A DNA stretch of 57,749 nucleotides, taken from a virus. Position numbers and translations under genes: made by a program. Of this stretch, positions 13,163-48,007 are shown piece by piece. The notes beneath the pieces were generated by a model. That model did not search any database. It was not told the DNA's origin and worked only from the letters and a program-made list of their open reading frames with translations. The stretch is from IMG/VR virus record IMGVR_UViG_3300045988_122638; one strand, given 5' to 3'. The stretch's first letter is position 1. Each line of letters starts with the position of its first letter.

Positions 13163-15919
13163 TCAACTATTTAAATATTTCGAAACTGTTGATGTTGACT
13201 TTCCTAAAACTTCTGCGATTTCAGCATTTGTATAACCTGATGCAGCCAAAGCTTTGATTCTACTAACTTGAGCAGAGGATAACGCACCATTAGACTTAGG
13301 GGTAGCCTTTTGTCTTATTACATCTTGATCCGCATACCTTAGTATCTTTGTCAATTTGGAATCGCTTACTGCACCAGACTGAATAGCTTCCCATTCTTTA
13401 TCTGTTATGTTAATTCGCGTACCTTTTCCGCTTGCACCGACTGCTATACGAGCCTTGTTAATGGCAATTTGTTTTACTTTTTTCAATGCTTTCTTATCTT
13501 TTTCTAATTCTGGATTAGCTTGTTTTTTCGCCTTTACTTCAGAATTAGCAAGAACTTGAGCTCTTCTTTCTCTCGGTGCATTAAGTGCAGCAAGATTTAG
13601 TTTCGCATTTAATGAATCCACTTCTGACTGATAGATACGTTTGGCGTTTGCATTGGTAGCAAGTCTACCAGTATATACCGCCTCCTTACGAGCATCGTTA
13701 GCCATGGCTTTCATTTTATTAGCATAATCAGCATATGCATTCTCCTTAGGGTGTCCCGATGACAGCTTATGTGCATCGTCTGTTACTGACATCAATGACA
13801 CATTCGTCATCGCTTGTTTGGTCTTTCCGGTCTTCGGATCAACGTATGTTCTGCCTGACTCTTTGTATAATATGGTCCCCTCAGGTTTGGTAGGATCATA
13901 CCAACTCTTTCCTTTTTGATTTATTCTCCCTGAACCTTTTCTTTCAGGCACTTGAGTCTCTTGCTTACGTCTTGATAGTAGGGTTGACGCCCCGCTCTCT
14001 TTTAATTCTCCATCCATGTTTTGATGACGCTGGTAGGTCTTCTTTAGCAAGGCTATATCGTTGTCTTTTTCGGATTGTTTATAATCTAATTTGTGCTTTT
14101 CAGCATCAATTACTACCATACTATGTTTTACAGCTTTAGCTATATCTTTCTCAGGTGCCCCGCGCAGTGTCATATCAGTTATAAGATTTGACACTATGCC
14201 CATTTGTTTTTGGGTTTCGCTTTTAGTCATGACTTTCATTCCCTCATGATAAGCATACTGAGTCTTAGGATCGAATCCCTCCAAATCTTTTAACGGTGGT
14301 GTTGATTTTATACGAACTTTATTGTTTACTGGTATAACTGTTACTTGATCGCCATCAAAATCAGCCCCTGATAATCGTTCAGCCACTTTAGCGTTAATAC
14401 CAACGGCATCGACAACATTTCCCAATATCCTTTTCGCTGATGGATTTTTATTATTAACCGTCAATACCGGTATTTCAAATGTACCACCATGAGGAAAACG
14501 AATTAATGCCACCTGTTCACCGTTTTTATAGTTAGGAGCATATACTTCTGTTTCTTTCATTGCCGATATAGGTAAAATAACTTGAGTATTCTGCCTAGGC
14601 AATGCGGCTGCTTGTAAATGTACCGCCGCTGCATCACAATCATTTGCAAAATCCATTAACATTTTCTTTTTTACCGTCGGATTAGTAAGAGATTTTATCT
14701 CTGAGTATTCTGCCTCTCTATCTGCATATGTTAAATCCAGCTGTTTCTTTATCATACTCAAAGGTTGCTTCGATAAAAATTGCTGGGATAGATTTCTTGA
14801 CATCGTATCCCAATCCCCTTCTTCTTTAAGTTTGTTAATGGCAGAAAGTTTTTTAGTTCCATCTTTAGGATCTATATATTCACTTTGACCATTGGCTTTG
14901 ATTAATGCACCAAACGGATTTTCAGGATCATCTTTTATTGGTTTTAACACATTCATTTTATCGGTCCCCGACTTTTTATTTGTATTAAACACGATATCTA
15001 CTCCATCTGGAATATCATCAGAATACATAGCCATACCTTTCAAGTAATGGGTACCGTCTACAAGTATACGTACTTGCGCGTAGTGTGAATTTCCTAAATC
15101 CAAATCGGGTACACCACGTCTTATTTCGATGACACCATCCTTATTCAAACCGCCCTCATCACCATAGCATATACTAATTCTTCTAGAATCTATACTGGTT
15201 GGCTTTTTTAATTCGTTGAATGTTGCACCACCATCAGTAGAATGATAATTACCCAAAGATTGCACATCACCCATATTTTGATATACATCTCTATATTCAA
15301 TTTCCGGATTACACAAAACTTTAGTGTTCGATTGCTGATGGGCATTAGTCACTTGAGGAATTCCTACACCATAAACGTTGTATCCCTCACGTTCCAAAAT
15401 ATAAAGAGCTTCTTTCATAGTATTTTCCGATATACCAATCTCTCGCTCTGCACCGGCACCAACATCTATCATACTTTTTTTCTTTAATTCTTTCTTTAAA
15501 ATATCAGCAGCTTTTTGAGCACGATTTGCTCTTTCGGCAGTATTGTCGTTCAAAAGTGAACGAACAGAAGAATCATATTGGTATCCCATGATTTTTGCAA
15601 TTTCATTAAGGGATTTACCATCCGCTCTTAGTGATTTAGCACGGTCAACTTCCAATTGACGTCGTTCATGCGACGCTAATTGTTTTTGCACTCTGTATTG
15701 GGTAGTGCTTAAACCCAATTCATGTGCGATTTCAGTTTCCGTCATACCAGATTTTTTTAGTTCATCTATTCTAGATAGAAAATCTCCGCTATGTTGAAAC
15801 GGATTTTCTCCACTCCCCCACGGGTAACGTCCTGAGTGTCGTGGTGTACCATAATGGGCTAATGCCTTACCACTGGAACCGCAACCAAAATATGATTTTA
15901 TTTCGTCTATAATACTCAT
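13163..15919 (-). CDS. YonO/QDE-1-like single-subunit two-barrel RNA polymerase with N- and C-terminal HTH modules
   Basis: 918 aa. LIRFPHGG (aa 472-479) lies upstream of SGADFDGDQVTV (DFDGD = aa 520-524, nt 14348-14362), which is the beta-prime/RdRP-type metal-binding signature. HTH-like units: MTETEIAHELGLSTTQYRV, KSLNEIAKIMGYQYDSSVRSL and C-terminal YTNAEIAEVLGKSTSTVSKYL. Confidence 0.65.
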   Translation of the reverse strand: MSIIDEIKSYFGCGSSGKALAHYGTPRHSGRYPWGSGENPFQHSGDFLSRIDELKKSGMTETEIAHELGLSTTQYRVQKQLASHERRQLEVDRAKSLRADGKSLNEIAKIMGYQYDSSVRSLLNDNTAERANRAQKAADILKKELKKKSMIDVGAGAEREIGISENTMKEALYILEREGYNVYGVGIPQVTNAHQQSNTKVLCNPEIEYRDVYQNMGDVQSLGNYHSTDGGATFNELKKPTSIDSRRISICYGDEGGLNKDGVIEIRRGVPDLDLGNSHYAQVRILVDGTHYLKGMAMYSDDIPDGVDIVFNTNKKSGTDKMNVLKPIKDDPENPFGALIKANGQSEYIDPKDGTKKLSAINKLKEEGDWDTMSRNLSQQFLSKQPLSMIKKQLDLTYADREAEYSEIKSLTNPTVKKKMLMDFANDCDAAAVHLQAAALPRQNTQVILPISAMKETEVYAPNYKNGEQVALIRFPHGGTFEIPVLTVNNKNPSAKRILGNVVDAVGINAKVAERLSGADFDGDQVTVIPVNNKVRIKSTPPLKDLEGFDPKTQYAYHEGMKVMTKSETQKQMGIVSNLITDMTLRGAPEKDIAKAVKHSMVVIDAEKHKLDYKQSEKDNDIALLKKTYQRHQNMDGELKESGASTLLSRRKQETQVPERKGSGRINQKGKSWYDPTKPEGTILYKESGRTYVDPKTGKTKQAMTNVSLMSVTDDAHKLSSGHPKENAYADYANKMKAMANDARKEAVYTGRLATNANAKRIYQSEVDSLNAKLNLAALNAPRERRAQVLANSEVKAKKQANPELEKDKKALKKVKQIAINKARIAVGASGKGTRINITDKEWEAIQSGAVSDSKLTKILRYADQDVIRQKATPKSNGALSSAQVSRIKALAASGYTNAEIAEVLGKSTSTVSKYLNS

Positions 15920-16742: not shown

Positions 16743-16815
16743 TCTTTAAATTCTCCTTTCTGCAAAAATATAAAAAGAAAATGATGCGTATTTTTTTACG
16801 TATATCTCCTTCTCT

Positions 16816-16841
16816 CCATAAAAGGGCATGTTTTTTTCGCG
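16816..16841 (-). promoter_or_regulatory. Conserved 26-nt promoter-like motif, copy 1
   Basis: Minus strand: CGCGAAAAAAACATGCCCTTTTATGG. Directly follows a terminator and lies about 75 nt upstream of ATG 16742. Confidence 0.6.
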
Positions 16842-16842: not shown

Positions 16843-16878
16843 ACGAAAAGAAAGAGCCTGTGTAGTTAACACAAGCTC
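16843..16878 (-). terminator. Rho-independent terminator
   Basis: Minus strand: GAGCTTGTGT-taact-ACACAGGCTC followed by TTTCTTTT. Confidence 0.75.
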
Positions 16879-17870: not shown

Positions 17871-17899
17871 ATTATATCATACTTTAGCTGAAAAGTAAA
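17871..17899 (-). promoter_or_regulatory. SigmaA-type promoter (TTTACT-17-TATAAT)
   Basis: Minus strand: TTTACTtttcagctaaagtatgaTATAAT, upstream of ATG 17848. Confidence 0.55.
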
Positions 17900-17922
17900 A
17901 GGCCATGTTTATGACCTCTTAC
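17888..17922 (-). terminator. Rho-independent terminator, second conserved family, copy 1
   Basis: Minus strand: GTAAGAGG-tcataaacatgg-CCTTTTAC followed by TTTT. Similar to the copy at 38183-38215. Confidence 0.6.
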
Positions 17923-18133: not shown

Positions 18134-18148
18134 AATATCACACTCCTT

Positions 18149-18174
18149 CCATAAAGGAAAATGAAAATTTTGCG
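18149..18174 (-). promoter_or_regulatory. Conserved 26-nt promoter-like motif, copy 2
   Basis: Minus strand: CGCAAAATTTTCATTTTCCTTTATGG. Its 3' end runs into the RBS GGAAGGAG. Confidence 0.55.
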
Positions 18175-19615: not shown

Positions 19616-19647
19616 TAAATAAAAAGAAAGAGCCCTTGTTAGGACTC
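19616..19647 (-). terminator. Conserved cassette terminator, copy E
   Basis: Minus strand: GAGUCC-uaacaa-GGGCUC followed by UUUCUUUUU. The ORF stop TAA lies in the loop. Confidence 0.65.
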
Positions 19648-19851
19648 CCCTTCTGATTTTTTGTGATCCTTAATGCATTTAGCGACCCAGCACATGTTGG
19701 ATGCTATTACGCCAACTAAAGCACCAGCCATGATTCCTTTCGTCGTTCCTTGATGTAATGCCTCATCGTAGAACGCGGTAAGTGTATCACCATGTGTTTT
19801 TAGTAATTCGTTAATAGTATCAATTCGTTCTTTCGTCATTTTAAATTTCAT
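19639..19851 (-). CDS. Intron-embedded small membrane protein (70 aa); not a homing endonuclease
   Basis: AAAGGAG RBS. Translation MKFKMTKERIDTINELL... with hydrophobic GIMAGALVGVIASNMCWVA. The track ORF to 19950 includes intron core and promoter. Confidence 0.6.
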   Translation of the reverse strand: MKFKMTKERIDTINELLKTHGDTLTAFYDEALHQGTTKGIMAGALVGVIASNMCWVAKCIKDHKKSEGES

Positions 19852-19865
19852 AAATATCACTCCTT

Positions 19866-19891
19866 TCATAATAGGAGTTGTTTTTATCGCG
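19866..19891 (-). promoter_or_regulatory. Conserved 26-nt promoter-like motif, copy 4 (inside the intron)
   Basis: Minus strand: CGCGATAAAAACAACTCCTATTATGA, followed by AAGGAG and ATG 19851. Confidence 0.55.
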
Positions 19892-20962: not shown

Positions 20963-21034
20963 AACTTTTTACTCCTTTCAAAATATAAAAAAGTTAAGAC
21001 CCGATGTTTCCACCGAGTCTTTCGTTTGGGTTTC

Positions 21035-21060
21035 CCATAAAGGAACCTGCATTTTTCGCG
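21035..21060 (-). promoter_or_regulatory. Conserved 26-nt promoter-like motif, copy 3
   Basis: Minus strand: CGCGAAAAATGCAGGTTCCTTTATGG, about 70 nt upstream of ATG 20962. Confidence 0.55.
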
Positions 21061-33965: not shown

Positions 33966-33968
33966 AAA

Positions 33969-34145: not shown

Positions 34146-34159
34146 AATAATCTCCTTTC

Positions 34160-34747
34160 TTAATCTATCGCTAAAGCTCTTGGTAATTTTAAAATATAAC
34201 CGTCTCGCACCCGAACAACGCTTGATCCTCTTAGATCTATCCAACCGTAGTTGTTACAAGTATAGTTGTGTGTCGTTATGCTTGCCAAGTCATATAATTC
34301 GGCTACTGACACGACTTTATATTGATTTAGAATATCATACATCGCATCTAGTACAGCTTCTGCATCGCCCCTCGTTTCGAATATAATTTCATCATAGTCA
34401 AAATTATTACGAACCACTGGTGATCTGTAATCTCTACTTCTGTCATCATAATATCGACTGTAAGAAACTTTAGACGAATTACCTTTCTTATTTTTTATTT
34501 CGCCATACAACAGCATATTAGTGCCATTAGTAACAATATCCGATACTAGCTTTTTTGCAGCCGGTAATAATACTTCTGAGAAAATATAACTTTTCACATT
34601 GCTGACATCTTCACTAAGAAATGTATCAGATAACTTGCGCATGCCTGATTTTTTCTTAGTTGATGTTTTTCCTGAAACTACTTTCTCTACTTTTTTTTCT
34701 GCAACTTCTTCTCTAGCTTTATGCGAATTAGATGGATAATTTTCCAT
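34160..34747 (-). CDS. Conserved phage protein, function unknown
   Basis: 195 aa. PSNSHKAREE...FDYDEIIFETRGDAEAVL...YGWIDLRG pattern is common in Bacillota phages. Confidence 0.6.
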   Translation of the reverse strand: MENYPSNSHKAREEVAEKKVEKVVSGKTSTKKKSGMRKLSDTFLSEDVSNVKSYIFSEVLLPAAKKLVSDIVTNGTNMLLYGEIKNKKGNSSKVSYSRYYDDRSRDYRSPVVRNNFDYDEIIFETRGDAEAVLDAMYDILNQYKVVSVAELYDLASITTHNYTCNNYGWIDLRGSSVVRVRDGYILKLPRALAID

Positions 34748-34761
34748 AATTGTCCTCCTTT

Positions 34762-34953
34762 TTATTGAACTAATTCTATTTTTCCAGGCAACGAAACTCT
34801 TGCCCCTGCTGTCAAATTATTGTTTTTCTTATACTGATACGCCAAGTTACTTCTAGCTTTTGTTTCTGATGCAGCATATGTTGTCCCGATCCAATTTGTT
34901 TCAACGATTGTGTCAAATCTTTTTATCGGACCTTTATATATGTATTTGTTCAT
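34762..34953 (-). CDS. Hypothetical small protein
   Basis: 63-aa ORF. Confidence 0.55.
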   Translation of the reverse strand: MNKYIYKGPIKRFDTIVETNWIGTTYAASETKARSNLAYQYKKNNNLTAGARVSLPGKIELVQ

Positions 34954-34974
34954 GTTTTAATATTCCTTTCAACA

Positions 34975-35016
34975 AAAAAATAAAAGAGAAAATACCTAGT
35001 TAAAGGTATCTTCTCT
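34975..35016 (-). terminator. Rho-independent terminator (12-bp stem)
   Basis: Minus strand: AGAGAAGATACC-tttaacta-GGTATTTTCTCT followed by TTTATTTTTTT. Confidence 0.75.
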
Positions 35017-35046
35017 TTTTCGAACTCTGTTCAGTTTTTATTTGGA

Positions 35047-35292
35047 TCATTCTTCCTCTTCAACGATTTCATTTTCATTGTCCGAAACCACCATAACTGG
35101 CTGTTCATTTTTTGCCTTGTGCTTGTCCCATACTCGTTTTACTTGCTTAGCACCCATAATAGCTGCACATGCCAATGCACCTCCGATTATTATGCCCAAG
35201 CCTATTGGCTTTCCCGAACGCCTTTCCATTACGTTTTCCAATGTTTCCGCAACAGTGTCAACTGCCTCGTTCGTCATAAGTTCTTCATTCAT
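35047..35292 (-). CDS. Small membrane protein (start ATG 35292)
   Basis: AAGGAGG RBS. MNEELMTNEAV... with TM IGLGIIIGGALACAAIMGA. The track ORF extension covers motif copy 8. Confidence 0.6.
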   Translation of the reverse strand: MNEELMTNEAVDTVAETLENVMERRSGKPIGLGIIIGGALACAAIMGAKQVKRVWDKHKAKNEQPVMVVSDNENEIVEEEE

Positions 35293-35336
35293 TTTATTTT
35301 CCTCCTTAAAATATAAAAACTTGAAAGATTGTTCTT

Positions 35337-35362
35337 CCATAATACAAATTGTTTTTTTCGCG
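35337..35362 (-). promoter_or_regulatory. Conserved 26-nt promoter-like motif, copy 8
   Basis: Minus strand: CGCGAAAAAAACAATTTGTATTATGG, about 45 nt upstream of ATG 35292. Confidence 0.6.
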
Positions 35363-35371
35363 TGTCCAGTT

Positions 35372-36136
35372 TTAGCAATAGTCATACTCTGGTGACACTG
35401 CGTATTCTATAGCTAAGCATGGATTTCCATCGTCCGCCAATAGTGGCACATATGATATATCTATTAGACCTCTATCTATATTCCAACCTAATTGGTCACC
35501 CATTTTAGTAAAACTCAACCCGAGTTCATAATAGAAATCGTTCAAAGATATATATGACTCGCTAAGCATTCGCCTGTTTAGTTCATTTACTATTTTTTTA
35601 ATAGTATCTATATCAGACTTAAAATATCGACCACTCACCGAATCATAGCAAAGTGTATCTCCTTTTGATGTAATAATAACCTCTTTATTAGCCATTGGAT
35701 TATTCTCTATTTTTTCTTTTACGATTTTTGTTTTTATTTCTTCAGCCTTTTTTTCGCCTACAGTCTCTGCTACTTTTTCTTGATAACTTTTTAATGTAGC
35801 TTCGGTCATAGCATAAACACTTGCTAATGCCGTATTTCTCTTGAAACTTACTGTTGACGCTCCTATCAAACATGTCGCCGACATCAATATCGTTATTGCA
35901 GACGGAATATAACATTTCCAAGTACATTTTACAACCTCTATCGGCTGTAATTTACTTACTTGTTGTTCATCTTTTTCGCATTCGATATTCTTCAAAGCTT
36001 TAGGTGTGGCTTTTACAGCCATCACTGTAGCAGAAATCATACCGGCAATTCCTATACCTGTTAGTATTTCAGGACTATGCTTTTTTATTTTTCTACCTAT
36101 ATTTTTTGTTATAACTGACAAATTTTTGTTCATCAT
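35372..36136 (-). CDS. Two-TM paralog family protein, member 2 (254 aa)
   Basis: IKKHSPEILTGIGIAGMISATVMAVKATPKAL and LNDFYYELG...GDQLGW blocks. Confidence 0.7.
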   Translation of the reverse strand: MMNKNLSVITKNIGRKIKKHSPEILTGIGIAGMISATVMAVKATPKALKNIECEKDEQQVSKLQPIEVVKCTWKCYIPSAITILMSATCLIGASTVSFKRNTALASVYAMTEATLKSYQEKVAETVGEKKAEEIKTKIVKEKIENNPMANKEVIITSKGDTLCYDSVSGRYFKSDIDTIKKIVNELNRRMLSESYISLNDFYYELGLSFTKMGDQLGWNIDRGLIDISYVPLLADDGNPCLAIEYAVSPEYDYC

Positions 36137-36146
36137 ACTTCTCCTT

Positions 36147-36440
36147 TCAATTATTGATTAACTGGTCTATTATATCATTTGATACTGTAACAGCTGTTGC
36201 AAATATGTGTTCTGTTTTTTCATTCAGTGTTGAAAGTCTATACATTTCATCCCTAAATCTTTCAACCGCACATAACGGTGGTGTTAATTTATCTCTCGAT
36301 AAAATATCAATGAGTTCTTTTGCCGCCCATTTAGAATTTGAAACGGTCAGAAAAGAAAAACCGTACCATGTACCTATTTCATCCAGATAATATATATAAT
36401 TTTTTATAATTTCAACCGCTGATTCATTTGGCGACTTCAT
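36147..36440 (-). CDS. Hypothetical protein (start ATG 36440)
   Basis: GAAGGGAG RBS. The track start at 36458 abuts the terminator T-tract. Confidence 0.55.
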   Translation of the reverse strand: MKSPNESAVEIIKNYIYYLDEIGTWYGFSFLTVSNSKWAAKELIDILSRDKLTPPLCAVERFRDEMYRLSTLNEKTEHIFATAVTVSNDIIDQLINN

Positions 36441-36458
36441 ATGCATATCTCCCTTCAT

Positions 36459-36488
36459 TAAAAAAGAAAAGAGTCCTTGTTAGGACTC
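36459..36488 (-). terminator. Conserved cassette terminator, copy D
   Basis: Minus strand: GAGTCC-taacaa-GGACTC followed by TTTTCTTTTTT. Confidence 0.65.
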
Positions 36489-36494
36489 ATCTTC

Positions 36495-36647
36495 TTATTG
36501 TTTATCGGCGACTGCCTTTGCGACTTCCTTTGCAATTGTTTCTTTCATTTCCGCTTTTTCTGTAAAGCTACTTGCGATAGGTACCGCAATAGCTAATATA
36601 GATATAATCGGTTTTGCTACTTTCATAACTTGCTTAATGTTTATCAT
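36495..36647 (-). CDS. Small membrane peptide (50 aa; below the track cutoff)
   Basis: GGAGGTG RBS. Translation MINIKQVMKVAKPIISILAIAVPIASSFTEKAEMKETIAKEVAKAVADKQ. Confidence 0.5.
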   Translation of the reverse strand: MINIKQVMKVAKPIISILAIAVPIASSFTEKAEMKETIAKEVAKAVADKQ

Positions 36648-36664
36648 AATGCATTCACCTCCCT

Positions 36665-36690
36665 TCATAATAGAGATTGTTATTTACGCG
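36665..36690 (-). promoter_or_regulatory. Conserved 26-nt promoter-like motif, copy 5
   Basis: Minus strand: CGCGTAAATAACAATCTCTATTATGA, then AGGGAGGTG and ATG 36647. Confidence 0.55.
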
Positions 36691-36693
36691 TGT

Positions 36694-37461
36694 TCACAAC
36701 CAACCATCGAGATAATCCGATGTTGGAGCAAAGGGCATGGAAATTAAACATACTTCCATTCCATCATCTGTTGTTATAAAATCGTGTTCAAAATCAACCC
36801 AGCTATAGCCATAAAACGCCATACCTGCATCTATACTCCAACCTATCGTGTCTCCACCTTTGATCTTATCTATTCCTAAAAAATCATATAATTCATTTAA
36901 CGTAGCATATCCGCGTAAAGTAAAATTTCTATTAAAATGATACTCTGCAGATATCACATCTACTTTATTCGATTCAAAATATCTTTTTGAAAACATATCA
37001 TAAAATAAACTTTTTTCTTCTGAAGACACCTCAGGTTTTGTATCACGATAAATATCTTTAGCCATTTCTTTATCTACAGCAGCATCATCTCCATACATTT
37101 CATTAACTTTATCTCTATACTCTGTATATGATTTTTGTAATAATGCATAAGCGCTTATGAGAGATGCTTGTTGCTTTTTATTAAGAATATTAGCACCTAA
37201 TATACAAGCTATAGTTGAAACACCTATAATTATAGTAGGTAGATATATATGAGTCGTAGTTATGATTTTTTCTTTATTCGATAATTTATCACCTTTTTCT
37301 TTTTCTGCCTCTTCTATAGAATATAAAGCTTTAGGTGTCGCTTTAATTGCACTAACAGCAGTAATAACTACACCTGCCGTACCTATACCAGTAAGAATGG
37401 TAGCTACGTTTTTCTTAATGAAACATCCTGTTTTACTTAATAATTTATTCATTCTATTCAC
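36694..37461 (-). CDS. Two-TM paralog family protein, member 3 (255 aa)
   Basis: FIKKNVATILTGIGTAGVVITAVSAIKATPKAL and LNELYDFLG...GDTIGW blocks. Confidence 0.7.
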   Translation of the reverse strand: MNRMNKLLSKTGCFIKKNVATILTGIGTAGVVITAVSAIKATPKALYSIEEAEKEKGDKLSNKEKIITTTHIYLPTIIIGVSTIACILGANILNKKQQASLISAYALLQKSYTEYRDKVNEMYGDDAAVDKEMAKDIYRDTKPEVSSEEKSLFYDMFSKRYFESNKVDVISAEYHFNRNFTLRGYATLNELYDFLGIDKIKGGDTIGWSIDAGMAFYGYSWVDFEHDFITTDDGMEVCLISMPFAPTSDYLDGWL

Positions 37462-37474
37462 CTCCTCCCATCAG

Positions 37475-37508
37475 AAAAAATAAAAGAAAAGAGCCCTTGT
37501 TAGGACTC
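37475..37508 (-). terminator. Conserved cassette terminator, copy C
   Basis: Minus strand: GAGTCC-taacaa-GGGCTC followed by TTTTCTTTTATTTTTT. Confidence 0.65.
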
Positions 37509-37515
37509 TGTTTTC

Positions 37516-37734
37516 TTATTGTTCATTGGGAACAACAGAATTGAGTAATTTTTCAAGTCTGTCTGTGAATTCCCTTTGTTTATCCACACATGCCATTCCT
37601 GTTGTAGATAGTTCGGCGGTTTTTGAAGCGATCATAGCTACTAAAGGATCGTTTGGTCTCTCCTCAATTAGCTTACACACTAAAAATCCTACCTCTCCAA
37701 TCTCCCGGAATAATTTTTTTGTTGTTTCTAACAT
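37516..37734 (-). CDS. Hypothetical small protein (cassette C cargo)
   Basis: 72 aa with an AAAGGAG RBS, flanked by motif copy 9 and terminator C. Confidence 0.6.
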   Translation of the reverse strand: MLETTKKLFREIGEVGFLVCKLIEERPNDPLVAMIASKTAELSTTGMACVDKQREFTDRLEKLLNSVVPNEQ

Positions 37735-37776
37735 AATAATTCTCCTTTCAAAATATAAACTCGTGGTCTATTGTTT

Positions 37777-37802
37777 CCATAATACGTATTGTTTTTTTCG
37801 CG
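37777..37802 (-). promoter_or_regulatory. Conserved 26-nt promoter-like motif, copy 9
   Basis: Minus strand: CGCGAAAAAAACAATACGTATTATGG, about 40 nt upstream of ATG 37734. Confidence 0.6.
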
Positions 37803-37806
37803 TGTT

Positions 37807-38169
37807 TTAAATATAACGTCTATCGAATACCGTTTCCCATCTCTCTCGTGATAAAGGCTTCATTTTCAGAGCCCACATTATTTGCCGAACTGTAACCGTT
37901 GGATATAATCCGTCGTCAGAACACTTTTTTGATCGTTGTTCAAAATAGCCTTTAAAATAAGGATGTAAATATATTTCATCAGTAAGCCACGGATCGACTT
38001 CGCTCCACCATGTACTTTTTGTTTCAACATCATATCTCTGCTGTATTACAGCTAAACCTTTTTCGTCAATTTTATATAACGTACAACTGTCGTAAACCGG
38101 ATGATTACAAATATAAAGTTTTCCATACATAGATAAGTAAATAGGTGGCTTTTCGTAATGATAACGCAT
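37807..38169 (-). CDS. Conserved phage protein (MRYHYEKPPIY...), unknown function
   Basis: Start ATG 38169 after a GGAGG RBS. 120 aa. Confidence 0.6.
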   Translation of the reverse strand: MRYHYEKPPIYLSMYGKLYICNHPVYDSCTLYKIDEKGLAVIQQRYDVETKSTWWSEVDPWLTDEIYLHPYFKGYFEQRSKKCSDDGLYPTVTVRQIMWALKMKPLSRERWETVFDRRYI

Positions 38170-38182
38170 TTTATGCCTCCAA

Positions 38183-38215
38183 GGATAAAAGTAAAAGACC
38201 ATGTTGATCTTTTAC
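38183..38215 (-). terminator. Rho-independent terminator, second conserved family, copy 2
   Basis: Minus strand: GTAAAAGA-tcaacatgg-TCTTTTAC followed by TTTTAT. Confidence 0.6.
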
Positions 38216-38236
38216 TCCGGAACTATAACTTATCAA

Positions 38237-38701
38237 TTACTTCCTCGGCTTAAATTTACTCCATAAACTTCTAAATGTTGTCGATGTAAATATACCTTTT
38301 TCCTCAAACTTAAAACCTTTCTTTAGCCAGACACTATAAAACACAATCGGTATTATGATTTCTGCCGCCGCTATTCCCGCTTTGAAATATCGATCTTTAA
38401 CCTGTTCTTTAAGCTGTTCTGCTTTGAATTGTTCCTCGCAACTACGAGCATCGTTTTCCGCATCTAATTGTTTTTCTTTTATTATTAACTCATCAGACTG
38501 CAGAGTATTTTCCATCTCGCGTCGTTCTTTCTTTTCTTCAAATTCCAGCCCCATTCTAGTCTCATCGATTTTTAAACGGTACAACGTGTTTAAATCATCT
38601 ATTGCTAACTGCTTTTCTTTCGATCCGTCATCTAGCGTTTTTAGACTTTCAATTTGTGCTATAATTTCCTCATCTAACAAATCTTTAATGTTTTTTTTCA
38701 T
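38237..38701 (-). CDS. Coiled-coil protein with C-terminal TM segment (start ATG 38701)
   Basis: AAAGGAG RBS. MKKNIKDLLDEEI... with hydrophobic GIAAAEIIIPIVFYSVWL. Confidence 0.6.
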   Translation of the reverse strand: MKKNIKDLLDEEIIAQIESLKTLDDGSKEKQLAIDDLNTLYRLKIDETRMGLEFEEKKERREMENTLQSDELIIKEKQLDAENDARSCEEQFKAEQLKEQVKDRYFKAGIAAAEIIIPIVFYSVWLKKGFKFEEKGIFTSTTFRSLWSKFKPRK

Positions 38702-38738
38702 TTTAGCTCTCCTTTCAAAAATATAATTTTTCATAGTT

Positions 38739-38764
38739 CCATAAAAGAAACTGTTTTTTATGCG
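38739..38764 (-). promoter_or_regulatory. Conserved 26-nt promoter-like motif, copy 10
   Basis: Minus strand: CGCATAAAAAACAGTTTCTTTTATGG, about 35 nt upstream of ATG 38701. Confidence 0.55.
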
Positions 38765-38830
38765 GTTCTTATCTATCCTTTACCACAATAATAAAATAAC
38801 ATATATTATTGTAACCTGCGTGCTGAAAAT

Positions 38831-38862
38831 AAACAAAAAAGAAAGAGCCCTTGTTGGGACTC
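38831..38862 (-). terminator. Conserved cassette terminator, copy B
   Basis: Minus strand: GAGTCC-caacaa-GGGCTC followed by TTTCTTTTTTGTTT. Confidence 0.65.
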
Positions 38863-38868
38863 AATCCT

Positions 38869-39165
38869 TTAATCTGTTGAATAAATACTACCGTTCATAG
38901 TTTTAGGAATACAAGAAATATCCCAAACTCGAATAACTTTCAGTTCGTTTATCAATGAGCACCATTCGGTATTAGAAGCTTTAAATACTATATGCCATAT
39001 ACGACCATCTGACCAAATCCTAATACGTCCATATAATAATGTTTTGACGCAATTCCGATTTTTGTTAATAACCTCTATGGTTTTTAGTACATCATCTTCA
39101 AATACAATAAAATGATGAGTTTTGATTATGAACTTATTCATAAGTTTGTTAAGTGTATTGTTCAT
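38869..39165 (-). CDS. Hypothetical protein (cassette B cargo)
   Basis: 98 aa with an AGGAGGAG RBS, flanked by motif copy 6 and terminator B. Confidence 0.6.
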   Translation of the reverse strand: MNNTLNKLMNKFIIKTHHFIVFEDDVLKTIEVINKNRNCVKTLLYGRIRIWSDGRIWHIVFKASNTEWCSLINELKVIRVWDISCIPKTMNGSIYSTD

Positions 39166-39180
39166 ATTTATCTCCTCCTA

Positions 39181-39206
39181 TCATAATAGGGTATGATAAA
39201 TATGCG
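39181..39206 (-). promoter_or_regulatory. Conserved 26-nt promoter-like motif, copy 6
   Basis: Minus strand: CGCATATTTATCATACCCTATTATGA, then TAGGAGGAG and ATG 39165. Confidence 0.55.
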
Positions 39207-39211
39207 TAGGT

Positions 39212-39628
39212 TTATCTTCTATACTTACTTAACAAATAGAAGAATCGTCTATATCTATCATAATATATATCCCTTGAACAAGGCATATTCATTTGTAATC
39301 GAAGAGCTTCATATGATAATCCTTGTGTAACAGCTTTAAATATATAACTTGCCAACTCGATATCTGCATCATTTGCCGCCTTATTAACCATATCCATTCT
39401 TTCGCGATAGTATAATCTTTTTTCCACAGTTTCAGCTGTATAGTCCGTTATTTTATTTGTTTGACTGTTTTTCTTTAAATCAGAAATCTTAGTAAAATCT
39501 GATAACTCGTTATATTGTTTTTCCCACAATGGGTACTGTAAGCAAAAATGTTTTAATTCGTAATAACGATGTTCATTGATGTAGTATTTGTTCTTTTCAG
39601 AAATTTTTGGTCGTATAGTTGTACTCAT
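39212..39628 (-). CDS. Sigma-70 region-4-like / ArpU-RinA-type phage transcriptional activator (start ATG 39628)
   Basis: 138 aa. YYELKHFCLQYPLWEKQY... and a C-terminal HTH-like GLSYEALRLQMNMPCSRDIYYDRYRRFF. Assigned from memory of the pattern. Confidence 0.45.
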   Translation of the reverse strand: MSTTIRPKISEKNKYYINEHRYYELKHFCLQYPLWEKQYNELSDFTKISDLKKNSQTNKITDYTAETVEKRLYYRERMDMVNKAANDADIELASYIFKAVTQGLSYEALRLQMNMPCSRDIYYDRYRRFFYLLSKYRR

Positions 39629-39629
39629 T

Positions 39630-39914
39630 CTATTTCTTTTCTCCTTTCCATATGTACCCAGTTTCTTTATATAGTTTTTGGGGCGAAATATAGTAATTGA
39701 TTCTACCATATCTCGAATCCATTTCTTTTATAGTTTTTACAACCTGACCTTTTCTGGTTGCTGTTCCTATTGGCAACCACCCAACTATAATTCCTGCTCG
39801 AACCCAATGTGCCTCTTTTCCGTATACTCTTGCTGCTACTGCAACCGGTACCGATCCATCAGCAAATTTAATGTCATTCATTGGTTCTTTTTCGTTAACG
39901 TTTTGTTCTTGCAT
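39630..39914 (-). CDS. HTH DNA-binding protein; first early gene, possibly Cro- or excisionase-like
   Basis: 94 aa. VAVAARVYGKEAHWVRAGIIVGWLPIG is an HTH-like pattern. Directly downstream of a sigmaA-type promoter. Confidence 0.45.
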   Translation of the reverse strand: MQEQNVNEKEPMNDIKFADGSVPVAVAARVYGKEAHWVRAGIIVGWLPIGTATRKGQVVKTIKEMDSRYGRINYYISPQKLYKETGYIWKGEKK

Positions 39915-39939
39915 CTGCGTTCGTCTCCTTTCAACTGCT

Positions 39940-39968
39940 ATTCTAGCTTAAAAATGACTTTTTGTAAA
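39940..39968 (-). promoter_or_regulatory. SigmaA-type early promoter (TTTACA-17-TAGAAT)
   Basis: Minus strand: TTTACAaaaagtcatttttaagcTAGAAT, about 25 nt upstream of ATG 39914. The palindrome AGTGGAAATATCCACT (39978-39993) lies just upstream. Confidence 0.6.
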
Positions 39969-40059
39969 AACACATCGAGTGGAAATATCCACTTTTTTCT
40001 GTAATCAAAAAAACTCCTTTCTTAAATATAAATTACGATGTTGGTTTTATAAAAAAGAG

Positions 40060-40133
40060 AATGGCATGCAAGAATCGAACTTGCGACCCTCAGATAGATA
40101 TATCTGCCGCTCTACCAACTGAGCTAATGTCTT
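40060..40133 (-). tRNA. tRNA-like gene with an atypical 8-nt anticodon loop and 2 acceptor-stem mismatches; possible attP partner or pseudo-tRNA
   Basis: Minus strand: AAGACAT-TA-GCTC-AGTTGGTA-GAGC-G-GCAGA-TATATCTA-TCTGA-GGGTC-GCAAG-TTCGATT-CTTGC-ATGCCAT-T. D and T arms are canonical. Motif copy 11 lies 5 nt upstream and CTCTTTTTT follows downstream. Confidence 0.45.
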
Positions 40134-40138
40134 TCTCT

Positions 40139-40164
40139 TCATAATACGCCTTGTAAATTTCGCG
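40139..40164 (-). promoter_or_regulatory. Conserved 26-nt promoter-like motif, copy 11 (drives the tRNA-like gene)
   Basis: Minus strand: CGCGAAATTTACAAGGCGTATTATGA. Confidence 0.55.
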
Positions 40165-40179
40165 TATTAGTGTTAAAAT
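40151..40179 (+). promoter_or_regulatory. SigmaA-type promoter (TTGTAA-17-TAAAAT) giving a near-leaderless mRNA for ORF 40190
   Basis: TTGTAAatttcgcgtattagtgtTAAAAT. The ATG is 11 nt after the -10 box and has no SD. Overlaps motif copy 11 on the opposite strand. Confidence 0.5.
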
Positions 40180-40189
40180 ATGTTACGTC

Positions 40190-40513
40190 ATGATTAAAAT
40201 AAATGAAAAATATTGTCCTATTTGTAAAAATAAGTTGAAATACTACGACAGTGTAAAAAGAATAGTGAAAACTAAAAGAGGGAAAACTAAAAAGATTGTA
40301 ATTCGCAGACTTCGTTGCAGTTCGTGTAAATCATTACATAGAGAGCTCCCAAGTTCAATAATACCATATAAAGAATATGAGTCTGAAATAATCATTGGTG
40401 TAATTGAAGGTCTGATTACTCCTGAAACTCTAGGATACGAAGACTATCCTTGCGAGATGACTATGAATCGTTGGATCAACGAAAAAAATAGACTTTTAAA
40501 AATGTATTTTTAG
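40190..40513 (+). CDS. Zn-ribbon protein, possibly DUF6431-like; candidate lysogeny-side regulator
   Basis: CPICKN...RRLRCSSCKSLHRELPSSIIPYKEY. Same strand as the integrase and directly upstream of it. Confidence 0.5.
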   Translation: MIKINEKYCPICKNKLKYYDSVKRIVKTKRGKTKKIVIRRLRCSSCKSLHRELPSSIIPYKEYESEIIIGVIEGLITPETLGYEDYPCEMTMNRWINEKNRLLKMYF

Positions 40514-40522
40514 ATGTAGGAG

Positions 40523-40551
40523 TTGACAATTCCTACACTTTGATGTATAAT
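40523..40551 (+). promoter_or_regulatory. Consensus sigmaA promoter for the integrase (TTGACA-17-TATAAT)
   Basis: TTGACAattcctacactttgatgTATAAT. The -35 box is embedded in the inverted repeat GTAGGA-N9-TCCTAC. Confidence 0.7.
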
Positions 40552-40584
40552 TTTTGCTAAAAACTATGACAGGAGAGAAAAAAC

Positions 40585-41817
40585 ATGTTAATGCCATGTC
40601 CCGAATGTGCTTTAAATGTTAGCGACAAAGCAATATATTGCCCTCATTGTGGCTTTCCTTTAAAGCCAGAGAAATTACCAAAAAAAATGAAAGGAAAAAA
40701 TAATAAAAGAAGAAGATTGCCAAACGGTTTTGGTCAAATAAGTGAAATTAAGAATAGAAAGTTACGTAATCCATTTCGTGCAATGATTACTGTTGGTAAA
40801 ACAGAAACAGGAAGAAGTATTTGCAAACCACTCAAACCGCAATCATATTTTCCTACTTATAACGCCGCATACGAGGCGTTAATAGAATATAATAAGAATC
40901 CATACGACCTTGATGTAGCTATCACAGTCTCAGAACTATACGAAAAATGGACAAGTGAATACTTTAAAACATTAAAATCAGCATCGAGTATTCGTACGAT
41001 CACTTCCGCATGGTCTTATTGTTCATCGATATACAATATGAGAGCCAAGGATATTAGGGCTCGACACATCAAAGGATGTATGGACGATGGTGTAGCTATA
41101 ATAAAAGGTGAAAAACGACTGCCTTCTGCGAATATGCAATCCCGAATAAAATCGCTATTTAACCTGATGCTAGACTATGCATTAGAATACGAAATAGTAG
41201 ATAGAAATTATGCTCGAACTTTTAATACTTCATCCGATGTTTTAAAAGAATGTGAAGAAAACTCCGACAGTCATATAACATTTTCGGACGAAGAAATATC
41301 AATATTGTGGGATAATCTTTATAAAGTTCCATATGTCGATATTTTGTTAATACAATGCTATTCTGGATGGCGACCGCAAGAACTTGGTTTAATTGAACTA
41401 AAAAATATAGACTTTAAAAACAATACTTTTATTGGTGGAATGAAAACCGAAGCCGGAACAGAAAGAATTGTTCCGATACATTCAAAAATAAAAGAGCTTG
41501 TTAAATTTAGATATGACGAAGCAGTTAGACTGCATAGTAAATATCTTTTTAACTGCCCTGAATCAAAAAATAGTGTCAACCTTACATATGACAAATATAG
41601 AAGCCGTTTCAAAAAAATTATAGAATGTTTAAATTTAAACCCCGAACACAAACCACATGACGGTAGAGTATATTTTGTTACAACAGCAAAAAAATATAAC
41701 GTAGACCAATTTGCTATAAAATATATTGTTGGACACAAAATCAATGATTTGACAGAAAAAGTCTATACAAAAAGAGAAGCATCCTGGTTAAAAACAGAAA
41801 TAGAAAAGATTAACTGA
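40585..41817 (+). CDS. int: Tyrosine recombinase / phage integrase with N-terminal Zn-ribbon and AP2-like arm-binding domain
   Basis: 410 aa. CPECALNV..CPHCG, then RLPNGFGQISEIKNRKLRNPFRAMITVG. The catalytic region has WRPQE...HKPHDGRVYF...GHKINDLTEKVY. Confidence 0.85.
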   Translation: MLMPCPECALNVSDKAIYCPHCGFPLKPEKLPKKMKGKNNKRRRLPNGFGQISEIKNRKLRNPFRAMITVGKTETGRSICKPLKPQSYFPTYNAAYEALIEYNKNPYDLDVAITVSELYEKWTSEYFKTLKSASSIRTITSAWSYCSSIYNMRAKDIRARHIKGCMDDGVAIIKGEKRLPSANMQSRIKSLFNLMLDYALEYEIVDRNYARTFNTSSDVLKECEENSDSHITFSDEEISILWDNLYKVPYVDILLIQCYSGWRPQELGLIELKNIDFKNNTFIGGMKTEAGTERIVPIHSKIKELVKFRYDEAVRLHSKYLFNCPESKNSVNLTYDKYRSRFKKIIECLNLNPEHKPHDGRVYFVTTAKKYNVDQFAIKYIVGHKINDLTEKVYTKREASWLKTEIEKIN

Positions 41818-41835
41818 TTTACAGTTTTAGTTGTG

Positions 41836-47356: not shown

Positions 47357-47387
47357 TAAAAAAAAGAAGGAGCCCTTGTTAGGACTC
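47357..47387 (-). terminator. Conserved cassette terminator, copy A
   Basis: Minus strand: GAGTCC-taacaa-GGGCTC followed by CTTCTTTTTTTT. Confidence 0.65.
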
Positions 47388-47457
47388 TTTGGTTTTTGTT
47401 TATTTCTTTATACGTTTGATTCCATATTCACAAGTAATCATAACTTATCACTCCTTT

Positions 47458-47483
47458 CCATAATAGGAGCTGTTATTTTTGCG
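47458..47483 (-). promoter_or_regulatory. Conserved 26-nt promoter-like motif, copy 7 (overlaps the XRE stop codon)
   Basis: Minus strand: CGCAAAAATAACAGCTCCTATTATGG. Followed only by a 13-codon mini-ORF (47400-47441) and terminator A. Confidence 0.55.
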
Positions 47484-47978: not shown

Positions 47979-48007
47979 ATTATATCATAATCCGCATTTT
48001 TTGTAAA
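47979..48007 (-). promoter_or_regulatory. SigmaA-type promoter of the XRE gene (TTTACA-17-TATAAT)
   Basis: Minus strand: TTTACAaaaaatgcggattatgaTATAAT. Confidence 0.65.

Follow-up and report, generated by a model that had tools for sequence, protein, structure and literature searches.

The segment between positions 36459 and 39206 of a 57,749-nt viral sequence (IMG/VR record IMGVR_UViG_3300045988_122638; this whole stretch is the window below) raises the question of whether its repeated hairpins and the small genes between them are self-contained expression cassettes, as a first-pass annotation proposed, and of which RNA polymerase would read them. The window holds the complete genome of an Oengus-like temperate siphovirus, a prophage of Lachnospiraceae-type gut bacteria. 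It encodes a tyrosine integrase and the element is also found integrated within bacterial contigs of 213-661 kb, in agreement with the temperate siphovirus first suggested.

Five minus-strand hairpins followed by T-tracts had been listed, and the pattern GAGTCCYAACAAGGRCTC does match exactly five times, always on the minus strand (19630-19647, 36471-36488, 37491-37508, 38845-38862 and 47370-47387), against 0.01 matches in shuffled sequence. The corresponding candidate terminators are those of cassettes E (19616..19647; GAGTCCTAACAAGGGCTC plus T-tract, with the TAA stop codon of the cargo gene inside the hairpin loop), D (36459..36488; a perfect palindrome, GAGTCC/GGACTC), C (37475..37508), B (38831..38862; loop CAACAA) and A (47357..47387; hairpin plus T-tract). 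Aligned, they share 22 invariant columns spanning stem, loop and T-tract; they fold in context at -10.6 to -16.3 kcal/mol, and the four inside the scanned region 30000-49999 were all called terminator-like. This stem-plus-T-tract structure supports reading them as terminators. The second hairpin family reported earlier is likewise real, with T-tracts following both members, also on the minus strand: 38183..38215 (GTAAAAGA..TCTTTTAC), 3' of a 154-aa gene, and 17888..17922, which closes a 65-aa cassette. A strong minus-strand terminator with a 16-bp stem and the loop UUAACU (34982..35019) closes an 81-aa cassette. Finally, the minus-strand hairpin at 16843..16878 (GAGAGCTTGTG..CACAGGCTCT plus T-tract, -18.7 kcal/mol) abuts a promoter motif at 16841 just as annotated, and this is the one place in the window where terminator and promoter are fused.

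Each of the five hairpins was also said to be paired with an upstream motif, and in 5/5 cases a copy lies 96-344 nt upstream on the same strand. This promoter-like motif, CGCR-N7-CA-N5-TATTATG, with the invariant letters CGC..CA..TTATG, has 11 convincing copies, all of them on the minus strand. Named by the position of their first C, they are 47483 (47457..47483, cassette A), 40164 (40138..40164, directly upstream of a tRNA-like gene), 39206 (39180..39206, cassette B), 38764 (38738..38764, upstream of the 154-aa gene and 80 nt downstream of terminator B), 37802 (37776..37802, cassette C), 36690 (36664..36690, cassette D), 35362 (35336..35362, upstream of the 81-aa ORF at 35047-35292), 21060 (21034..21060), 19891 (19865..19891, cassette E; CGCGATAAAAACAACTCCTATTATGAA), 18174 (18148..18174, upstream of the 65-aa ORF at 17936-18133) and 16841 (16815..16841; CGCGAAAAAAACATGCCCTTTTATGGA), which belongs to an endonuclease-exonuclease-polymerase operon. 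Copy 21060 is followed, before the next gene, by a leader hairpin and T-tract (20955-21036, -23.4 kcal/mol, z -3.7). The fixed-spacing pattern has 12 minus-strand matches and 0 plus-strand matches in the window (0.36 in shuffles), the twelfth, at 24879 inside the helicase gene, being probably spurious. Four counts of same-strand versus opposite-strand cases gave 246/12, 403/25, 97/6 and 336/10.

This strict strand specificity supports the promoter reading, as does the tRNA-like gene (40059..40133, minus strand; Rfam tRNA, 39 bits; 6-nt anticodon loop), which has no ribosome-binding site and has motif 40164 directly upstream; with the T-tract at its 3' end they form a promoter-RNA-terminator cassette. 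In 43/43 relatives having such a gene, the motif precedes it by 2-7 nt, and in 40 of these 43 the gap between TATTAT and the tRNA 5' end is only 2-3 nt, so that a canonical sigma-70 start would land inside the tRNA, a predicted geometry that does not fit sigma-70.

The cargo sizes in the annotation were exact. All on the minus strand, the five are the 70-aa ORF of E (19639..19851), the 50-aa ORF of D (36495..36647; hydrophobic centre, weak DUF6520 match), the 72-aa ORF of C (37516..37734; no family match, the exact protein being indexed in 3592 blocks of a public assembly collection), the 98-aa ORF of B (38869..39165; no family match) and the 13-codon mini-ORF of A, MITCEYGIKRIKK (47400..47441). 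The mini-ORF has a ribosome-binding site and is conserved, a single synonymous change apart, in relatives that share only 78% identity in the neighbouring regulator protein. No PHROG matches the cargoes of B, C and D or the 81-aa ORF, and the cargo of E has only a faint match (E 0.008); all five of five non-cassette neighbours have one.

All five proposed units are therefore real, but five is too low a count, with further minus-strand units running from promoter 18174 through the 65-aa ORF to terminator 17888-17922, from 35362 through the 81-aa ORF to 34982-35019, from 38764 through the 154-aa gene to 38183-38215, and from 40164 through the tRNA-like gene to its T-tract. The description of the units as self-contained holds only in part: promoter-less genes start 10-40 nt past a terminator, namely the DUF6353 gene (36694-37452, after terminator C), the 99-aa gene (36147-36446, directly after terminator D) and the 120-aa gene (37807-38169, after 38183..38215). 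Because these genes are conserved and begin right after terminators, termination would have to be leaky, and because they depend on that read-through the units are not independent. The units are best read as promoter-gene-terminator cassettes.

That boundaries should stay the same in relatives while the cargo differs was the annotation's own test of its idea, and relatives bear it out. Relative L221 has a hairpin-flanked stretch of 825 bp that the window lacks, with three cassettes placed exactly at hairpin C; L175 has an exact promoter-ORF-terminator insertion of 271 bp relative to L186, and L129 one of 331 bp relative to L128, so that insertions of 271, 331 and 825 bp distinguish near-identical relatives. 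At least one end coincides with a promoter or terminator element in 21 of 36 indels, and both ends do in nine. Homology breakpoints fall inside such elements in 23% of cases versus 4.3% for random positions, and within 10 nt of them in 44% versus 28% for random intergenic positions, a modest enrichment. The repeats thus coincide with recombination breakpoints. Terminator and promoter fused into junctions of ~55 nt are common in the relatives. The claim of variable small cargo nevertheless stands only in part: whole cassettes come and go in L221, L175 and L129, but several, such as D and the 81-aa one, are conserved backbone, and a coarse cluster test found no excess of rare genes among ORFs bounded by promoter and terminator compared with other ORFs.

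What the first-pass annotation overlooked is that these signals run through the whole lineage and are co-inherited with a polymerase-like protein that the phage encodes. In this 918-aa protein (13163..15919, minus strand; PHROG 4291), a candidate enzyme for the motif, GADFDGD is invariant, and the three HTH modules comprise tandem HTH motifs at the N terminus and an HTH or sigma-region-4-like domain at the C terminus. An orthologous, highly conserved copy of motif 16841 lies ~950 nt upstream of the polymerase gene in 54/63 relatives. Motif spacing and core are identical in FP_oengus (11/0), Arthrobacter phage KeaneyLin (6/0) and Streptomyces phage Bilo (4/0), and Lactococcus phage 1706 has a variant form; the 918-aa homologue of phage 1706 is annotated 'structural protein'. 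The fixed-spacing promoter together with UAACA-loop terminators occurs in Faecalibacterium, Arthrobacter and Streptomyces phages, and the promoter only in the Lactococcus phage; an HTH-fused polymerase-like protein with the DFDGD motif is common to all of them. Among 109 bacterial-genome loci with a T-tract-bearing hairpin, 96 also have the promoter motif, whereas 10 of 11 hairpins without a T-tract (chance hits in archaea and others) lack it.

Since the motif occurs in phages sharing the HTH-fused DFDGD protein, it is probably that enzyme's promoter, a role of which we found no description in the searchable literature. The explanation that we favour, and hold to be reasonably probable, is that the genome carries at least nine modular promoter-cargo-terminator units whose motif is most likely read by the phage polymerase-like protein rather than by the host sigma-A holoenzyme. 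Against this, the polymerase-bearing phages are all of one lineage, so co-inheritance is no proof of a functional link, and the UAACA loop is not shared by all of them. The identity of the 918-aa protein as a polymerase is not firm: its Pfam RdRP match is below threshold, no profile similarity was found to YonO or to PDB sequences, and its AlphaFold model is of low confidence, with no significant polymerase matches.

A possible objection, which we consider unlikely but the most serious, is that the motif is a host RNA polymerase promoter, sigma-A reading TATTAT/TATAAT as its -10, the hairpins being ordinary intrinsic terminators, and that the CGCG..ACA block is a phage activator site, possibly for the HTH-rich 918-aa protein in the role of transcription factor. 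TATTAT/TATAAT does look like a sigma-A -10 element, and a hairpin plus U-tract is where bacterial RNA polymerase classically terminates; both points count against a phage enzyme. The 918-aa homologues are annotated only as HTH DNA-binding proteins in many actinobacteriophage records, no polymerase fold is established, and an induced prophage has to begin with host polymerase; with the polymerase operon itself under the same promoter, the first enzyme would need another source. Against this objection, no -35 hexamer was found at 17+/-1 nt from the motif hexamer, bearing out the earlier view of the motif as unlike sigma-A promoters, and the hexamer of FP_oengus is CTTTAT, without the key A at -11. 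Phages of hosts with 35-72% G+C and differing sigma factors and sigma-A preferences keep this motif, the tRNA spacing argues the same way, and GADFDGD is invariant in the 918-aa protein. Moreover, true consensus sigma-70 promoters are used elsewhere in the window, only before the integrase gene (perfect TTGACA-17-TATAAT at 40523..40551, plus strand; gene 40585-41817) and the gene for a 156-aa transcriptional regulator (near-perfect TTTACA-17-TG-TATAAT at 47979..48007, minus strand; gene 47473-47943). A sigma factor gene was looked for and none was found.

It is very improbable that the motif is instead mainly an operator or regulator binding site, or an intergenic DNA-level site for replication, packaging or recombination. 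A conserved three-block sequence of 26 nt in a genome encoding several HTH modules, with repeats falling at breakpoints, would suit such a role, but the motif keeps one orientation matching gene direction, stands always at gene starts and after terminators, at a fixed short distance from ribosome-binding sites and the tRNA-like gene, and has a TATA-type element followed by purines, as in phage promoters.

The hairpin loops are themselves conserved: among 143 unique loops, AACA occurs in 36% versus 6% expected and UAACA in 23% versus 1%, the same loop sequence sits on different stems, and Arthrobacter and Streptomyces phages again have CCUAACA(A/C)GG loops. Least probable of all is that the hairpins are primarily protein-recognised RNA elements (a nut/boxB-like antitermination site, an RNase processing site or a 3' stabiliser), which would account for the conserved loop and the read-through that downstream genes need, but every copy comes just after a stop codon with a T-rich tract immediately following, stems vary with pairing kept, and other loops take the same positions in FP_oengus (mostly GAAA) and phage 1706 (no UAACA loop), although terminator function and protein recognition can be mutually compatible.

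Morons typically have host promoters and are expressed from the prophage; the concept, from lambdoid phages, is said to go back to Juhala and colleagues and to Hendrix and colleagues in 2000. Our units resemble morons as single genes with their own promoter and terminator, present or absent between near-identical genomes (the 271-bp and 331-bp insertions), but differ in forming dense arrays and in having as promoter the general lytic-type motif of the phage, which also precedes the tRNA-like gene and the polymerase operon. The annotation compared them instead to PeSLs, the promoter-early stem-loop cassettes of T4-type phages (Arbiol et al. 2010, PMC2839356; Comeau et al. 2014, PMC4122927). The likeness lies in the compact terminator-promoter junctions of relatives and in indels that start and stop at these elements, boundaries being kept while cargo varies. 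They are not strict PeSLs, however: PeSL promoters match the host sigma-70 consensus and this motif does not, promoter and terminator are mostly separated by cargo in the window, and the carrier is a temperate siphovirus of Gram-positive bacteria in which several cassettes are conserved backbone genes.

Promoters of T7-type single-subunit RNA polymerases are contiguous, ~25 nt long and conserved up to the start site. Ours would similarly run as one stretch up to the start site, with a TATA-type element just before the presumed initiating purines and many repeats in one orientation, but consists of three blocks with variable spacers, and the enzyme family and sequence are unrelated. A precedent for a phage enzyme is the two-barrel virion polymerase of Thermus phage P23-45, which uses promoters of its own and a conserved terminator motif of 26 nt, with start sites, ends and polymerase occupancy measured (bioRxiv 10.1101/2022.12.01.518664). 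That system likewise combines a non-canonical phage polymerase, a conserved early-gene promoter motif common to enzyme-encoding relatives and a sequence-conserved terminator, but was measured where we infer promoter and terminator activity, start site and polymerase from sequence; the sequences are unrelated, and its enzyme is fused to the tape measure protein rather than being a separate protein with HTH domains. YonO of Bacillus prophage SPbeta, whose promoter sequence was left undefined (Forrest et al. 2017, PMC5467207), is also a single-chain polymerase with a DxDGD catalytic loop from a temperate siphovirus, but no HTH domains have been reported for it and it serves a single late operon, and the yonN-yonK gap, where its start site lies, contains no motif-like sequence.

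Under the phage-polymerase reading, the 27-nt phage-specific promoter (CGCR-N7-CA-N5-TATTAT-GRA) would start transcription, probably on a G/A 1-3 nt past TATTAT. The product would be a short RNA with one small, mostly family-less ORF, a tRNA-like RNA or the 13-codon mini-ORF, ending at a factor-independent terminator with a GAG...CTC stem, a UAACAA-type loop and an interrupted U-tract. Because conserved promoter-less genes begin just past them, the hairpins would act as attenuators, giving a high level of the small ORF and a lower level of the downstream gene. The repeated sequences would mark, and may provide, the homology for gain and loss of whole cassettes, so that the units behave like morons or PeSLs, and in phages of both Firmicutes and Actinobacteria the promoter, less so the terminator type, is inherited along with the HTH-fused polymerase-like protein that marks the lineage. 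Numerous small genes without a known function thus seem to be set apart in a gut prophage by a repeated promoter of the phage itself and by terminator hairpins that are nearly identical; relatives acquire or lose whole units, and these signals accompany an unusual RNA polymerase-like phage protein in phages of two bacterial phyla.

The hairpin GAGTCCYAACAAGGRCTC occurs five times in the window, on the minus strand only (19616-19647, 36459-36488, 37475-37508, 38831-38862 and 47357-47387), where 0.01 copies would be expected by chance. The five copies align with 22 invariant columns, among them those of the loop and the TTTCTTTT tract; each folds as a stem-loop with a T-tract, and the arrangement of a G+C-rich stem-loop followed at once by a U-rich tract, past a stop codon, makes them predicted intrinsic terminators. 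A copy of the 27-nt motif CGCR-N7-CA-N5-TATTATG lies 96-344 nt upstream of all five. The first-pass annotation had described this pairing, and the cargo sizes it gave (70, 50, 72 and 98 aa for cassettes E, D, C and B, and 13 codons for cassette A) are exact; the terminator it placed against motif copy 1 (16843-16878) and its second hairpin family (17888-17922 and 38183-38215) are likewise real hairpins. Its count of five units holds for this hairpin, but at least four further units of like design are present, carrying ORFs of 65, 81 and 154 aa and a tRNA-like gene. The units are not fully self-contained, as conserved genes that lack a promoter, encoding a DUF6353 protein and proteins of 99 and 120 aa, begin 10-40 nt past a terminator.

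Some details of individual units may be recorded here. Cargo E has its stop codon, TAA, within the hairpin loop (GAG TCC TAA, 19639-19647), and in several relatives a conserved gene likewise enters the hairpin in the GAG TCC TAA frame; with the reading frame running into the loop, a stop codon can come from the terminator itself. Three DUF6353 paralogues are present (36694-37461, 35372-36136 and 32752-33699), and the first two each have a small-ORF cassette with its terminator upstream; the order promoter, small ORF, terminator, DUF6353 is kept in most relatives and in the Faecalibacterium phage FP_oengus, which also has three DUF6353 genes. Cassette A had been read as essentially empty and perhaps a remnant. 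Its mini-ORF (47400-47441) differs from those of three relatives (L349-L351) by one synonymous change, against 78% identity for the adjoining regulator protein; being better conserved than its neighbour, cassette A is probably functional, as a peptide or a small RNA, and not a remnant.

Positions 1-55 are repeated exactly at 57695-57749, so that the window is a circular or circularised assembly with a real length of 57,694 bp. Almost all of its genes are on the minus strand, the tyrosine integrase being on the plus strand. Family searches identified structural genes (tape measure protein, Dit, tail proteins, major tail protein, portal, a fused protease-capsid protein and large terminase), genes of replication and DNA metabolism (a 1327-aa primase-polymerase, helicase, annealing protein, endonuclease and exonuclease), holin, endolysin, the integrase, and a 918-aa protein of PHROG 4291, a family annotated as RNA-dependent RNA polymerase. 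Bacterial contigs of 213-661 kb carry the element with adjoining host genes, at 96-99% identity over 10.5 kb, which identifies it as a prophage. The closest isolate is FP_oengus, whose polymerase-like protein is 55% identical to that of the window; in human gut Firmicutes, Oengus-like phages belong to the most prevalent prophages. Genomes carrying the hairpin sequence are mainly those of Lachnospiraceae, and thousands of public assemblies contain the exact cargo proteins. A nucleotide search with the 36-40 kb stretch of the window against GenBank phages returned nothing useful, and an Rfam search returned tRNA only.

The motif has 11 convincing copies on the minus strand and none on the plus strand, compared with 0.36 in shuffled sequence; across the 11 the letters CGC..CA..TTATG are invariant at fixed spacing. 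One copy directly precedes the tRNA-like gene, which lacks a ribosome-binding site, and among 80 relatives fetched through the integrase the motif is immediately upstream of all 43 tRNA-like genes of the early region. It is strictly co-oriented with genes, the counts on the gene strand and the opposite strand being 246 and 12, 403 and 25, 97 and 6, and 336 and 10 in four independent sets of loci. Sigma-70-type promoters have TTGACA- and TATAAT-like hexamers 16-18 nt apart and start about 7 nt past the -10 hexamer. None of the 11 copies has a TTGACA-like hexamer 16-18 nt upstream of TATTAT, and in 40 of the 43 relatives only 2-3 nt separate this hexamer from the 5' end of the tRNA-like gene, so that transcription would have to start just past the hexamer, as it does at T7-type promoters, if the tRNA is not to be truncated. 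By its sequence, then, the motif does not qualify as a sigma-70 promoter. Essentially perfect TTGACA-17-TATAAT promoters occur in the window only before the integrase and a 156-aa regulator gene, which the host enzyme would be expected to transcribe in a lysogen.

Within 25 nt downstream of the promoter at 21060 there is a strong leader hairpin (GAAA loop and T-tract, -23.4 kcal/mol, z -3.7), which precedes the ribosome-binding site of the next gene, giving a promoter-terminator pair without an ORF (20955-21060, minus strand) that may be an attenuator; two relatives (L146 and L163) also show cargo-less pairs. Many genes, among them those following 3881-3913, 20959-20991 and 37729-37761, are preceded by a repeated translation-start context, TTATATTTTGAAAGGAG, and similar strings precede genes in FP_oengus, Arthrobacter phage KeaneyLin and Lactococcus phage 1706; it is a conserved leader or ribosome-binding-site context that is more than a simple Shine-Dalgarno sequence. 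The tRNA-like gene itself (40059-40133, minus strand) has a 6-nt anticodon loop, and ARAGORN could not name its anticodon. Similarly aberrant anticodon loops are found in 25 of the 43 tRNA-like genes from early regions of the relatives (L120-L199), where 16 are called tRNA-Val yet have an enlarged anticodon region; all are fused to a phage promoter and end in a T-tract. These could be decoys or suppressors, not ordinary tRNAs.

More than 118 IMG/VR contigs and over 120 bacterial contigs contain the exact hairpin, and loci often have several copies. The search of relatives for kept boundaries, which the first-pass annotation had proposed as a check, showed that promoter/small-ORF/terminator modules come and go whole. 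The prophage L221, with 88-93% identity to the window, has 825 extra bp exactly at hairpin C, comprising three more cassettes, each with hairpin, promoter, ribosome-binding site and small ORF, with the hairpin flanking the insert on both sides. A 271-bp insertion in L175 relative to L186 is exactly a promoter, a 63-aa ORF and a terminator; L186 has 3 nt at that place, and the flanks are 98% and 95% identical. A third relative, L129, carries an exact 331-bp cassette insertion. Of 36 simple indels among relatives at least 85% identical, 21 begin or end at a promoter or terminator element, and nine do both. Homology breakpoints fall inside elements in 23% of cases, compared with 4.3% of random positions and 19.5% of random intergenic positions, a modest enrichment over the latter. 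Both elements are present at 102 of 1613 ORF junctions. Counting against strong modularity, several cassettes are part of the conserved backbone, and in 78 relatives ORFs bounded by promoter plus terminator fell into protein clusters no rarer than those of other ORFs (median 68 versus 65 loci, p = 0.6), in a coarse and weak test with home-made ORF calling and strict element detection.

That the units are a MITE-like mobile element can be dismissed, as the repeats have neither terminal inverted repeats nor target duplications and gene orientation is always kept. About ten 1-kb contigs from independent samples, every one with an end close to promoter 38764 or 37802, are no evidence of strain-variable module boundaries: they align collinearly with the window at 99-100%. 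Their choice reflects an alternative start codon favoured by the exact-protein look-up, and the breaks themselves probably arise from the repetition of the promoter sequence.

The likeness to PeSLs, the promoter-early stem-loops described only for T4-type phages (PMC2839356, PMC4122927), survives in a weaker form. As with PeSLs, the units occupy a plastic region beside genes without known homologues: seven of the 11 promoters and three of the five hairpins lie at 35-40.2 kb beside the integrase, with none in the 27-kb structural module, and a PHROG search gave no match for cargo B, C, D or the 81-aa ORF and a faint one for cargo E (E 0.008), while all five adjoining non-cassette genes matched. 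Many indels between close relatives also have an end at one of the elements, and the L175 unit, a single gene with its own predicted promoter and terminator between genes adjacent in its relative, has the form of a moron. A PeSL is a compact stem-loop terminator plus promoter; the window has one fused case (16843-16878/16841), the pair at 38845/38764 standing 80 nt apart, whereas in relatives fused junctions are frequent, the T-tract running straight into the promoter (hairpin, TTTCTTTTT, ACGCGAAATTTACA... / ACGCG...). What separates the two systems is the promoter: PeSLs have a host sigma-70 consensus (-35, 17±1 nt, -10) with an AT-rich upstream region, and the window motif does not. The earlier PeSL-like reading was thus largely right in kind, with modules gained and lost whole, but strict membership fails on promoter type.

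We judge the reach of the signals to be more interesting than the PeSL question. With identical spacing, the motif punctuates small-gene regions of phages from several hosts. In FP_oengus (G+C of the fetched region 49%) it reads CGCGAAAAAnnCAnnnnnCTTTATGGA and terminator loops are mostly GAAA; in KeaneyLin (45%, the host having about 63%) it reads TCGCGTAAATTACAnnnnnTATAATrGA and in Streptomyces phage Bilo (60%) TCGCAnGTTTTnCnnnnnnTATAATGAGA, both with CCUAACA(A/C)GG loops; phage 1706 (33%) has a variant, ..GCAnnTTTTACAnnnnnTATAGTAGAAAG, and other terminator loops. These phages, too, have fused terminator-promoter junctions and tiny membrane-peptide cassettes. Between annotated genes of phage 1706 (L347, 9696-10380) are two unannotated mini-cassettes for hydrophobic peptides of 21 and 33 aa, each with a phage promoter and a T-tract terminator. 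Relatives yielded 158 hairpin copies, nearly all followed by a TTTCTTTT-type tract, and the UAACA loop is enriched, at 23% of 143 distinct hairpins versus 1% expected; it recurs on different stems, also in Actinobacteria phages, but phage 1706 lacks it and in FP_oengus it is rare. Arrays of small membrane-protein genes are mentioned in papers on FP_oengus, on phages of Arthrobacter, Microbacterium and Rhodococcus, and on the supercluster discussed below (including bioRxiv 10.1101/842583); in an incomplete search of this literature no paper mentioned the promoter/terminator motif.

These four phages have in common the 918-aa protein (13163..15919, minus strand), at 37-55% identity, previously singled out as signature gene of a cross-phylum supercluster (bioRxiv 10.1101/842583). 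The supercluster sharing this protein comprises, on the Firmicutes side, Oengus-like gut prophages and Lactococcus phage 1706, and on the Actinobacteria side the Arthrobacter AM/AU, Gordonia DJ, Streptomyces BI, Rhodococcus CC and Microbacterium EL clusters. A very conserved motif copy, CGCGAAAAAAACATGCCCTTTTATGAAGAGAG, lies about 950 nt upstream of the gene in 54 of 63 metagenomic loci fetched through the protein, and thus stands before an endonuclease-exonuclease-polymerase operon. Also upstream of this operon, non-coding DNA at 17340-17650 holds three TAAAAGTGGGCATTTGGCCATTTTTAT copies 84-85 bp apart; the equivalent 690-bp gap of KeaneyLin (L346, 28316-29006) is filled by very similar AAAGTGGGCA / TGGCCAA repeats, and phages 1706 and Bilo have repeat-rich gaps at the same place, which may be a conserved origin or protein-binding array. 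In KeaneyLin, Bilo, phage 1706 and many linear metagenomic contigs (L354-L433) the polymerase-like gene lies no more than 300-450 bp from an end, and the physical end of virion DNA is probably just past it.

The DxDGD metal-binding loop is the catalytic loop of two-barrel RNA polymerases of the YonO, QDE-1 and crAss gp66 kind. The 918-aa protein has such a loop, GADFDGD, at residues 518-524, invariant in homologues of five host genera and in 24 metagenomic homologues, together with two N-terminal HTH repeats and a C-terminal HTH matching sigma region 4; its homologues number in the thousands. It matches PHROG 4291 at E = 0 and Pfam RdRP at 17.2 bits, under the 23.8 cut-off; an HHpred match of 95.7% to PF05183 has been published (bioRxiv 10.1101/842583). 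Its putative identity as a polymerase rests on the DFDGD motif and these three matches. Profile alignment with YonO by hhalign gave no match, and sequence and profile searches of the PDB found HTH proteins only and no polymerase. An AlphaFold2 model from an alignment of 24 sequences at 69-80% identity was of low confidence (mean pLDDT 64.8, pTM 0.35); RDR2 and the largest subunits of multisubunit RNA polymerases account for all nine of its top Foldseek matches in the PDB, which is suggestive although not significant (E 0.06-0.5).

As to the enzyme that reads the signals, there are points in favour of the host polymerase: the motif hexamer looks like a sigma-A -10 element, the hairpins belong to the kind of terminator to which bacterial RNA polymerase responds, and an induced prophage must make its first polymerase by some route. 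All carriers of the 918-aa protein form one lineage, in which gene and motif would be co-inherited even without a functional link. Against the host enzyme stand the -35 hexamer lacking from the motif and the start position implied by the tRNA-like genes, and among 40 further ORFs searched for a sigma factor or other transcription proteins only the 156-aa regulator was found. The promoter of YonO is stated to be undefined (PMC5467207); nothing resembling the motif occurs in the 1.7-kb yonN-yonK gap of SPbeta, to which the start site of YonO has been published to belong. There is a precedent in Thermus phage P23-45, whose two-barrel virion polymerase uses promoters of its own and has a terminator motif of 26 conserved nt. 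The phage 1706 homologue is annotated in GenBank as a structural protein; should this reflect a place in the virion, transcription from the motif promoters could be started by an injected enzyme.

Judged from sequence comparison, the signals are a lineage-wide, host-independent punctuation system, and they probably belong to the phage's own polymerase. We are evenly divided on the fuller proposal, taken as a whole: that CGCR-N7-CA-N5-TATWAT-GRA would be the cognate promoter of an HTH-fused, DFDGD-containing family of single-chain RNA polymerases not characterised so far, with UAACA-loop hairpins as perhaps its preferred terminators; that this enzyme, which may travel in the virion, would drive transcription of the phage from portable signals independent of the host; and that those signals would also act as handles for recombination, by which small early genes are shuffled.

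The cassettes flag, gene by gene, the small early genes likeliest to act in host takeover or anti-defence, and the promoter-terminator pair could find use as a module for orthogonal expression. If the proposal is true, a large family of phage polymerase-like proteins would gain a concrete promoter and terminator, where for the related YonO the promoter is likewise undefined. The PeSL/moron idea, that regulatory repeats are handles for gene shuffling, would extend to temperate siphoviruses of Gram-positive bacteria, and a lineage with its own transcription signals could cross bacterial phyla, its G+C staying far below that of its hosts.
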